A DNA stretch of 64,000 bases from Escherichia phage NHEP29: the sequence record PQ511150.1; one strand, written 5' to 3'. Both the position numbers and the translations under genes were made by a program. Below the pieces are notes generated by a model. It saw nothing but the letters and a program-made list of their open reading frames with translations. It was not told where the DNA came from and ran no database searches. How positions within the stretch are numbered: position 1 is the stretch's first letter; each line of letters begins with the position of its first letter. Shown here piece by piece: positions 14,083-14,588 of this stretch.

Positions 14083-14274
14083 TTATCCTCTGAAATCAGC
14101 TTCAAAAACTTTCTCGTCATTAACAAATGCTTTAACTAATGCATTGTTCACTTCAGCAAGTTGCACCGCAACCCACTCAATTTCTTCGCGATCACCTGAT
14201 AACATGATATCTTTAGTGAACATCTTACCGCTTTTAAACCAACCGATAAAAGTAACTTTAGTTAATTTGCTCAT
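14083..14274 (-). CDS. hypothetical protein (63 aa)
   Basis: Start at Met8; ATGA overlap with upstream stop; GAGGA SD. Confidence 0.5.
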   Translation of the reverse strand: MSKLTKVTFIGWFKSGKMFTKDIMLSGDREEIEWVAVQLAEVNNALVKAFVNDEKVFEADFRG

Positions 14275-14588
14275 ATTTCCTCGCAAAATGCCCATTCAGC
14301 GTGATAAACTGTAGCGCCTTTAGTATCATTCATTTGAACTACATCTACCGGAGAAATTACTCGATAGAGACGTGGTTCACCTCCATAAGAGCGTGCTGCT
14401 CGTCCTGCATAAATCTTTGCTAAACCGATATCTTCAGTAAAGAATACACGATCCAAGTTTTTCTTACGTCCAGTTTCAGACAGAACTCCTGTTTCCTCAG
14501 GAGGACAAAGCATGTTTTCGATGTTAGCTGAACTACTTGAACCGTGATAAAAAATCTTAAATTCTGCTTTACAATCGATGGTTTTCAT
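14271..14588 (-). CDS. hypothetical protein with FYHGSS motif (possible Arr-like mini ADP-ribosyltransferase)
   Basis: 105 aa; FYHG[ST] His motif plus later Tyr and acidic residues; GGAGA SD; assignment tentative. Confidence 0.6.
   Translation of the reverse strand: MKTIDCKAEFKIFYHGSSSSANIENMLCPPEETGVLSETGRKKNLDRVFFTEDIGLAKIYAGRAARSYGGEPRLYRVISPVDVVQMNDTKGATVYHAEWAFCEEI

Follow-up and report, generated by a model that had tools for sequence, protein, structure and literature searches.

A minimal ADP-ribosyltransferase-fold protein of the Arr lineage encoded next to dmd in an RB69-like Escherichia phage

Introduction

Does an RB69-like phage encode an ADP-ribosyltransferase (ART) in addition to Alt, ModA and ModB, the enzymes that have made T4 the model of ADP-ribosylation by phages for 50 years? 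The window analyzed here is a stretch of 64,000 nucleotides from Escherichia phage NHEP29 (PQ511150.1), an RB69-like Mosigvirus. Its minus strand carries, at 14271..14588, a gene for a protein of 105 amino acids, which the first-pass annotation, made from the sequence alone, had regarded as a possible Arr-like ART. Here we describe this protein as a minimal ART-fold protein of the lineage of Arr, the rifampin ART. It is probably a fourth phage ADP-ribosylating enzyme besides Alt, ModA and ModB.

Results

A conserved gene in the 41-61 region

In the ORF list, the reading frame starts with ATG at 14588 and ends with TGA at 14271 on the minus strand, and its translation of 105 amino acids is MKTIDCKAEFKIFYHGSSSS... 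A GGAG Shine-Dalgarno (SD) sequence was read at 14598-14595. The protein matched phrog_2110, a family with no function assigned, from end to end (E 3e-60). Its orthologue in phage RB69 is RB69ORF040c (NP_861730.1), annotated as 'hypothetical protein', and the 1.4 kb around the gene is 98.9% identical to RB69 at the DNA level. By tblastn, orthologues with 34-100% identity were detected in 609 phage genome records. The full-length phrog_2110 match, the 609 records and the RB69 annotation indicate that the ORF is a genuine gene and not a chance ORF.

A few of the orthologue records in GenBank/RefSeq are labelled 'ADP-ribosyl transferase' or 'rifampin ADP-ribosyl transferase', the latter being the product name in Klebsiella phage records. 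These labels were excluded as evidence, because at least one such record misnames neighbouring genes: in the RefSeq record of HX01, gp61.4 is given as 'DNA polymerase' and Imm.1 as 'iduronate sulfatase', and the product name of its ART orthologue was set aside. The gene is not discussed in the paper from which the 'rifampin ADP-ribosyl transferase' annotation stems, and no mention of RB69ORF040c or of Arr-like ARTs of T4-like phages was found in the literature searched.

The order of the genes on the minus strand is gp41 helicase, ORF041c, the ART gene, dmd, 61.4, imm.1, imm, sp, 61.2, and further on the gp61 primase. The ORF041c-like gene (14644..15018, minus strand; 124 amino acids) matched phrog_10668 (E 3.6e-84), with no function assigned, and had no match in Pfam or PADLOC. 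On the other side lies dmd (14083..14274, minus strand; Pfam Dmd, E 3.9e-20), the antitoxin gene against the RNases RnlA and LsoA. The product of 61.2 belongs to Pfam AdfA, anti-DarT factor A. This 41-61 stretch is an accessory island with many genes for counter-defence and exclusion (Dmd, AdfA, Sp and Imm). As compared with T4, in which the gap from gene 41 to dmd is only 58 bp, there is an insertion of two genes at this place, the ART gene and the ORF041c-like gene. When the complete T4 genome was searched in six frames with the HMM, no homologue was found (best E 0.027, with 5e-61 for the window as the positive control), and the gene was therefore missed by classical T4 genetics.

Predicted early expression and overlap with dmd

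A putative promoter of the T4 early type was found by consensus scanning at 14615..14643 on the minus strand, with a GTTTACT -35 element, a 16-nt spacer and an extended -10 element, TGtTATTAT. Folding of the sequence predicted an RNA hairpin of 14 bp at 14593..14637 on the same strand, and its 3' arm contains the GGAG of the SD. The minimum free energy of the hairpin is -21.5 kcal/mol (z -4.8), and none of 200 shuffled sequences folded as well. The -10 element of the promoter sits within the hairpin loop. An RNA begun inside the loop, where the start is predicted at about 14608-14612, has no 5' hairpin arm, is unstructured (0 kcal/mol) and leaves the SD free. Therefore, this layout predicts that the ART is translated from its own early transcript and silenced on read-through RNA. 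Promoter-like elements are also located directly upstream of the orthologues in Lazarusvirus, Biquartavirus and Slopekvirus (seen in the phages Lazarus, avDM1 and KLB1), and the orthologues of these three genera do not keep the SD-sequestering hairpin. The consensus suggests promoter function for the window gene and its orthologues.

The TGA stop codon of the ART gene (14273-14271) overlaps the ATG of dmd (14274-14272) as ATGA, and the same overlap of 4 nt is annotated in RB69 and HX01. We propose that transcription of the gene would begin at once upon infection, driven by the early promoter of the gene itself, and that the ART would be translated together with the downstream antitoxin gene. 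Such early expression and co-translation with dmd would fit a role in host takeover or counter-defence.

The phage family is linked to Arr through its broader relatives

Searches with the single protein against Pfam (including Arr-ms), NCBIfam, PADLOC and, with phmmer, PDB gave no match. With the Arr-ms profile (PF12120), for which the gathering score is 25 bits, there was none at E<=1, and pairwise BLASTP against Arr-2 found nothing. A narrow profile from 41 close, T4-like homologues (alignment A1) did not reach Arr in PDB, and hhalign of A1 with Arr-2 gave a probability of 41% only. The sole result of A1 in PDB, complement factor I (E 1.5), was judged spurious. The empty searches with the single sequence and the narrow profile speak for an artefact, in which AlphaFold would have forced a small beta-rich protein into an ART-like shape and the FYHGSS sequence would have arisen by chance.

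The link to Arr was visible only once the A1 family was broadened by an exhaustive HMM search, which collected 224 representative clusters at E<=1e-3, each standing for a 50%-identity group. Many of these relatives contain several domains, with lengths of up to 3,924 amino acids. Relatives found by the profile at E 1e-23 to 1e-27 scored 26.8-31.5 bits on Arr-ms; those above the gathering score are P0127, P0132, P0149, P0136, P0148, P0150, P0158 and P0163, in which the Arr-ms match spans exactly the segment matching the A1 profile. The Arr-ms matches of the relatives cover profile positions 1-67 of 99 only. Of the 73 domain sequences in a broad alignment (A2), which are 28-55% identical to the window protein, 42 matched Arr-ms at E<=0.01 (best 1.4e-10); beyond Arr-ms, the 73 members gave one Pfam match, to DUF5865, and no other family recurred. 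The A2 profile retrieved only Arr chains from the entire PDB (E 2.7e-4). The hhalign probability of A2 was 95.5% with Arr-2 and 96.3% with the pair of Arr-ms and Arr-2, where residues 10-104 were aligned to Arr-ms 14-110. The Arr sequences used in the alignments were checked against PDB 9IBA and 2HW2.

From the matches of 42 of the 73 members to Arr-ms, the exclusive matches to Arr in PDB and the hhalign probabilities of 95.5-96.3%, the phage family belongs, on sequence grounds, to the Arr lineage (PF12120) as a divergent branch carried by phages. The Arr family including this branch is placed in the diphtheria-toxin-like H-Y-[EDQ] clade. The membership of the window protein itself in Arr-ms is transitive only, via its relatives, and the T4-like subfamily is just out of the range of the Pfam model. 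Thus, the search with the Arr-ms profile, which the first-pass annotation had proposed, failed for the window protein and succeeded for many of its relatives, and the suggested resemblance to Arr and the H-Y-[ED] class is supported by the Arr matches of A2 in PDB, by hhalign and by the ART-fold matches described below. An artefact has practically no chance of being the correct explanation, since the sequence evidence for Arr is independent of any structure prediction and the aligned residues include the H19 and Y49 positions of Arr, which are validated by mutagenesis.

The predicted structure is an ART lobe alone

The AF2 model of the 105-aa protein (pLDDT 84.7) gave the ART-fold matches for which structure prediction had been suggested. 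It contains the split beta-sheet core of the ART fold, with beta1 / beta2-helix / beta-hairpin. The best structural match of the model is the NAD lobe of Tpt1, and Arr is the closest characterized relative by sequence and by Foldseek. The window protein consists of the ART/NAD lobe alone, with a core of about 95 amino acids in the 105. The least confident part of the model is the loop of residues 31-47 (block pLDDT 63-74), which carries E38 and R41.

NAD-site features of Arr are kept and rifampin-binding features are lost

The defining features of Arr are the HGT motif (H19), the S-[NH]-[YF] loop, Y49 and the catalytic D84 inside DPN[VL] (PMC6092378, PMC8492726). The S-[NH]-[YF] loop lies at the entrance to the NAD site (PMC6092378), and rifampin is bound at site 1 (residues 87-95) and site 2 (residues 126-133) (PMC8492726). 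DPN[VL] with D84 is 100% conserved in Arr.

The FYHGSS sequence of the first-pass annotation was confirmed as residues 13-18 (codons F13-Y14-H15-G16-S17-S18; nt 14552-14535, minus strand), and conservation and the alignment with Arr-ms identify it as the beta-1 'HG[ST]' NAD-binding motif. H15-G16-S17 aligns to H19-G20-T21 of Arr-ms; H15 and G16 are invariant in A2, in which all sequences have T or S at position 17. T33, conserved at 92%, aligns to S37 of Arr, the Ser of its S-N-[YF] loop, and T33-G34-V35 differs from S-[NH]-[YF] at the second and third positions. Next is a near-invariant loop, E38-T-G40-R41-K42-K43-N44 (14457..14477, minus strand). Its E38, G40 and R41 align to E40, G42 and R43 of Arr-ms; K43-N44 is an insertion relative to Arr, and K-K-N is particular to the phage family. 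Across the broad family the conservation is 99-100% for E38, the sole universally conserved acid, 96% for R41, 85% for K43 and 84% for N44. The near-invariant S-E-x-G-R-K-K-N loop is thus new in the phage family relative to Arr. From its conservation, the E38-x-G-R41-K-K-N loop may act in catalysis or substrate binding, and the alignment suggests where E38 and R41 would lie relative to the NAD pocket.

On beta-2, F49-F50-T51 (14436..14444, minus strand) places F49 opposite Y49 and T51 opposite T51 of Arr-ms. In A2, position 49 is F in 97% and Y in 3%, and T51 is 97% conserved. The Tyr on beta-2 of the H-Y-[EDQ] clade is therefore replaced by Phe, a conservative change. This Phe is compatible with activity, because the key residues of the active AcrIF11Pae1 are H-F-H-D and not H-Y-Y-E (PMC12421852). 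In the helix after beta-2 (residues 54-68 in the model), Y60 (14409..14411, minus strand) is an aromatic residue invariant in A2 and is aligned at or beside W59 of Arr-ms. By analogy with the second Tyr of the diphtheria-toxin-like H-Y-Y-E enzymes, Y60 may stack on nicotinamide. A V-x-P-x-G strand is common to the phage protein and Arr. Also conserved in the broad family are A57 and A61 (98-99%) and G69-G70 (95-98%), and a basic cluster of R41-K42-K43 with R63 is conserved as well.

According to hhalign and a census of acids, M86-N87-D88 (14325..14333, minus strand) is the counterpart of D84-P85-N86 of Arr-ms. In this low-confidence alignment, which adjoins a gap, D84 falls on the hydrophobic M86; most members have L, I, V or M at this position. 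About 80% of the sequences carry N, S, Q or H at the position of N87. Position 88 is D/E in 85% of the T4-like clade versus 37% of the broad family. A 5-residue deletion after M86 removes the DPNV-T segment of Arr and rifampin site 1 (hhalign), and residue 105, the C-terminus, is aligned to G110 of Arr-ms, the helical rifampin site 2 being absent. E103 is present in 100% of the T4-like clade versus 25% D/E in the broad family, and it was rejected as a family-wide catalytic Glu. The 'conserved Tyr and acidic positions' noted earlier therefore hold only in part, for Y60, which is invariant, and E38, which is universal; the position of the canonical Tyr is taken by F49, and the conservation of E103 is limited to T4-like phages.

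The ART fold, the homology to Arr and the retention of NAD-site elements are established by these results. As judged from the alignments, the phage family has kept the NAD-site half of the Arr signature, with Tyr changed to Phe, and has lost the catalytic Asp and the antibiotic-binding half. Since D84/DPN[VL] and both rifampin segments are missing, rifamycins are not its substrate. A genuine rifamycin-resistance Arr, as some GenBank records say and as the Klebsiella phage product names and the closeness of Arr in sequence and by Foldseek might suggest, is effectively excluded: D84 lies opposite a hydrophobic residue, site 1 is deleted, site 2 is absent and the relatives match only positions 1-67 of 99 of the Arr-ms profile. 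In addition, a virulent phage would gain little from shielding the host RNA polymerase (RNAP) during the minutes of an infection.

Distribution, conservation and domain fusions

The hosts of the phages with this gene include Escherichia, Klebsiella, Acinetobacter, Aeromonas, Vibrio and others. In cultured phages, members of the family were detected only in T4-like (Straboviridae) genomes and in a few Vibrio phages, and a search of plasmids gave no match. The gene is located in the 41-61 region in Mosigvirus and Lazarusvirus. In Slopekvirus and Biquartavirus it is in the 24-hoc-uvsW region, where RNA ligase 2 lies about 1.4 kb downstream of it, and in Slopekvirus it is near rnlB. No co-travelling partner gene was found across Mosigvirus, Slopekvirus, Lazarusvirus, Biquartavirus and one Vibrio phage. 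Between the window and Acinetobacter phage Lazarus, the identity is 70.5% for the ART, 62.5% for gp41 and 53.6% for gp61. Between Slopekvirus and Biquartavirus, the ART is 68% identical, while the syntenic accessory neighbours are only 27-40% identical. These values show that the ART gene is under strong purifying selection and is more conserved than the replicative helicase gp41.

In metagenomic phage proteins, the Arr-like ART domain is fused to other domains. P0166 has a lambda-type portal followed by the ART domain and a 2H/Acb1-like phosphoesterase, and P0164 has ART-PolyVal followed by the Arr-like ART domain and NUDIX. ART-PolyVal and the Arr-like ART domain are also in one protein in P0130, P0139 and P0186. 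Other arrangements are GNAT, Toprim and the Arr-like domain in this order (P0178), DUF7178 with the Arr-like domain (P0153 and P0155) and CHAP with the Arr-like domain (P0175). These fusion architectures are of the injected type. Stand-alone copies were present in two Patescibacteria MAGs, the only loci found with a tighter alignment. Their neighbours (an IS integrase and glycoside hydrolases) are uninformative, and no macro, NADAR or ARH partner lies beside the two copies. The reading as a toxin-antitoxin or polymorphic toxin was dropped, the neighbours being uninformative.

Proposed activity and acceptor

We consider it reasonably probable that the window protein is an active, NAD+-dependent ADP-ribosyltransferase that does not act on rifamycins. 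In the mechanism that we propose, a single-domain minimal ART with a core of about 95 amino acids would bind NAD+, expel nicotinamide and transfer ADP-ribose to an acceptor, and the E38-x-G-R41-K-K-N loop would position the acceptor, standing in for the canonical beta-5 acid.

Because the canonical catalytic acid is not conserved, the protein could also be inactive or only an NADase. It would then be an NAD+ glycohydrolase, or a dead binder of NAD+ or ADP-ribose that serves as a decoy or sponge, e.g., for immune signals derived from ADPr. Phages are known to use sponges against nucleotide signals, and the very small size of the protein, with no substrate-binding extension, is consistent with such a role. 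However, H-G-[ST], F49, T51, Y60, E38 and R41 are near-invariant over the 224 clusters, as in an enzyme active site. NAD+ depletion would be harmful to a phage that needs NAD+ for ModA, ModB and Alt, and the repeated fusion to a second ART, NUDIX or 2H fits a generator of ADPr conjugates. A function other than transfer is therefore improbable.

For the transferase, the strong conservation points to the kind of acceptor. Phages that infect Escherichia, Klebsiella, Aeromonas and Acinetobacter conserve this protein more strongly than the helicase, and it has no recognition domain; its acceptor should therefore be invariant among these hosts, and it would act early in infection on something common to Gammaproteobacteria. 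As a tentative proposal, the acceptor may be an oxygen nucleophile on a nucleic acid or nucleotide, i.e., a terminal or 2'-phosphate or a hydroxyl, modified by Tpt1/Arr-type chemistry. This acceptor is favoured because the canonical acid is dispensable in the family (Tpt1/Arr-type chemistry needs no canonical glutamate), because the NAD lobe of Tpt1 is the nearest structural match, and because the basic cluster of R41, K42, K43 and R63 is conserved. The proximity of RNA-centred genes, dmd here and rnlB elsewhere, and the fusion to 2H and NUDIX, which process Tpt1-type ADPr products according to a survey covering KptA (PMC9503650), point in the same direction.

In the main alternative, the protein could be a protein-directed mono-ART in the manner of AcrIF11, ModA, ModB and Alt, with a side chain of a defence protein or a conserved host protein as its acceptor early in infection. 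This differs from the above at the level of the acceptor class only, the claim at the enzyme level being the same. We regard it as possible but doubtful. The protein has no target-recognition module, and no family-wide acid is found at the canonical position. Furthermore, the recognition region of AcrIF11 is variable, whereas the phage protein exceeds gp41 in conservation from Acinetobacter to Escherichia. Such extreme conservation argues against a fast-evolving defence protein as the target, but not against targets of the type of RNAP, the ribosome or EF-Tu. If the enzyme is protein-directed, the conservation and the lack of a recognition module would indicate a core host protein rather than a defence protein.

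Several observations count against a nucleic-acid acceptor. The protein has no Tpt1 RNA-binding lobe, no family member matched the Tpt1 Pfam family, the neighbourhoods of the gene differ and contain no co-travelling partner, and the characterized phage ARTs mostly modify proteins.

An extended form of the oxygen-nucleophile proposal is that this Arr-derived ART of about 95 amino acids works without the acid, its invariant loop ADP-ribosylating a universal non-protein oxygen nucleophile, as an enzyme of a hitherto unrecognized counter-defence or takeover class. We think this rather unlikely as a whole, but it would explain the conservation above the helicase, the co-expression with Dmd, and the portal and polyvalent fusions beside 2H and NUDIX. 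Candidate acceptors for such an enzyme are a terminal or 2'-phosphate of RNA or DNA (Tpt1-like) and a nucleotide immune signal (Arr-like O-ADP-ribosylation).

Discussion

ART folds, Arr, phage ARTs as weapons and the guess of a few annotators at an 'ADP-ribosyl transferase' were already known, and the finding is therefore not categorically new. What is new is an ART of the Arr lineage cut down to about 95 residues, in which the signature is H-F-Y, with an E-x-G-R-K-K-N loop and no rifampin site, its wide spread in T-even-like phages other than T4, and its recurrent polyvalent and portal fusions. It gives a solid and testable starting point towards a fourth ART activity of T4-like phages, which has received no study although the gene is in 609 phage records, and it does not overturn expectations. 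The acceptor, once found, would be a new host-takeover target or reveal a new anti-defence mechanism. The label 'rifampin ADP-ribosyl transferase' is misleading, and the orthologues should not be counted as resistance genes in therapeutic phages. With about 95 residues, the family also provides a naturally minimal scaffold for dissecting what NAD+ chemistry needs from the ART fold.

Among known systems, Arr (Arr-ms, PDB 2HW2/9IAF; Arr-2, PDB 9IBA) has the same fold, with homology over residues 14-110 of Arr-ms. HG[TS], the Ser/Thr of the loop, E-x-G-R, the aromatic residue and Thr on beta-2, the aromatic residue on the next helix and the V-E-P-x-G strand are common to both, and both are small with no extra domains. 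The phage protein differs from Arr by Phe in place of Y49, the loss of D84/DPN[VL] and of rifampin site 1, the insertion of K-K-N, and the complete absence of the C-terminal helical site 2 (about 33 residues). Arr is carried on bacterial chromosomes or integrons, whereas the phage family is on T4-like and metagenomic phages. The accessible part of a survey of viral NAD/ADPr proteins mentions proteins of the rifampin-ART family only in phages of Microbacterium, Gordonia and Sinorhizobium (PMC9503650).

Tpt1/KptA (PDB 9LD3, 7KW9) has an NAD+-binding lobe that resembles the phage protein, but the latter is without the N-terminal RNA-binding lobe. In Tpt1, this lobe carries most of the catalytic Arg-His-Arg-Arg tetrad. 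The second motif position is Phe in the phage family and His in Tpt1, and none of the 73 members of A2 matched the Tpt1 Pfam family. Fusions of KptA with 2H and NUDIX are noted in the same survey (PMC9503650).

In AcrIF11 (PDB 6KYF, 8DWQ), a helical insert of variable sequence and a catalytic loop with D115/E116 are present, and the phage family appears to have neither. The insert is proposed to recognize Csy1/Csy3 and varies between homologues (PMC12421852). AcrIF11 is common on plasmids and prophages, whereas the phage family is on virulent T4-like phages with no plasmid match.

Alt, ModA and ModB of T4 are likewise phage-encoded and NAD+-dependent and act at or early in infection. However, they belong to the R-S-E clade and are at least twice the size, and the beta-1 residue of the phage family is His, not Arg. 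The family profile gave no significant match to T4 ModA, ModB or Alt. T4 has these three enzymes and no member of the Arr-like phage family; in the window, ModA- and ModB-like genes are present at ~6469-7650 on the minus strand and were undetected by the family profile, in agreement with the earlier view that the 105-aa protein is distinct from them.

ART-PolyVal (PF18760), which is the ART domain found in polyvalent proteins of phages, forms a domain family of its own, and the relatives of the window protein match Arr-ms instead. It lies side by side with the Arr-like domain in P0130, P0139, P0164 and P0186, and the presence of both ART domains in one polypeptide suggests that their substrates are not redundant.

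Leader and downstream junction of the ART gene

The leader of the ART gene (14271-14588, minus strand) contains a predicted 14-bp hairpin (−21.5 kcal/mol, z −4.8) together with a T4-early-type promoter (14593-14643, minus strand, for the two). The Shine-Dalgarno sequence of the gene is sequestered in this hairpin, and the embedded promoter, assigned by consensus, has its −10 element in the hairpin loop. In the classic T4 device, only the promoter-proximal transcript is translatable. As judged from the sequence, the ART leader would be an example of this device. Orthologues in other genera also have their own upstream promoters, as identified by consensus, and the Shine-Dalgarno hairpin is absent from them.

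At its 3′ end, the stop codon of the ART gene overlaps the start codon of dmd in the tetranucleotide ATGA (14271-14274). Because of this overlap, translation of the ART gene would be coupled to that of dmd, the antitoxin against RnlA/LsoA.

In T4, gene 41 is followed directly by dmd, with 58 bp between them, whereas the ART gene precedes dmd in the window. The insertion relative to T4 consists of the ART gene and an ORF041c-like gene (14644-15018, minus strand; phrog_10668), and the 124-aa product of the latter had no match in Pfam or PADLOC. A GGAGAC-ttcg-GTCTCC hairpin is located just past the stop codon of gene 41, and it is followed by the ORF041c-like gene's own promoter-like site (15076-15048).

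Other ADP-ribosylation genes in the window

Two ModA/ModB-like genes of the R-S-E class (about 6469-7062 and 7195-7650, minus strand) encode proteins with 32–38% identity to T4 ModA and ModB. With the 105-aa protein, this brings the number of proteins with an ART fold to at least three in a span of 8 kb. The island around the 105-aa ART gene contains a factor against a host DNA ADP-ribosyltransferase, since the gp61.2 orthologue (12121-12780, minus strand) matches Pfam AdfA (anti-DarT factor A) with an E-value of 1e-119. This gene is about 1.5 kb from the phage ART gene. The gp61.2 product is 219 aa, GTG-extended, in the ORF list, as compared with 212 aa in the RB69 annotation.

Conservation and distribution of the ART domain

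Between the window and Acinetobacter phage Lazarus, the identity was 70.5% for the 105-aa ART, 62.5% for the gp41 helicase and 53.6% for the gp61 primase; the accessory protein is thus better conserved than these two replication proteins. Among the metagenomic phage proteins that carry this domain within larger fusions, two are notable. In P0166 (954 aa), the ART domain (685-787) is preceded by a lambda-type portal (94-410) and followed by a 2H/Acb1-like phosphoesterase (833-930), and P0164 (1955 aa) has ART-PolyVal (1501-1617), a domain of this ART family (1705-1804) and NUDIX (1832-1929). Both architectures suggest that the virion delivers a mixture of enzymes for the synthesis and processing of ADP-ribose conjugates.

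Among the occurrences found, the only cellular genomes were two candidate-phyla-radiation (Patescibacteria) MAGs, with stand-alone ORFs of about 145 aa (L007, 5863-6309; L008, 5884-6315) showing 53–57% identity to the metagenomic consensus. An IS-type integrase adjoins one of the two copies.

Placement and naming of imm and imm.1

In the RefSeq re-annotation of Escherichia phage HX01 (NC_018855, 2141-2782), the Imm.1 orthologue is labelled 'iduronate sulfatase', as is imm.1 in the T4 RefSeq, and the 70-aa gp61.4 orthologue 'DNA polymerase'. Both HX01 labels are almost certainly over-transferred names. The window has the gene order of RB69, in which imm and imm.1 (13130-13808, minus strand) are flanked by 61.4 and sp, whereas in T4 (26373-27013 of the T4 sequence) they lie about 6 kb away, flanked by genes 42 and 43. 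This relocation is an example of accessory-gene shuffling among hyperplastic regions.
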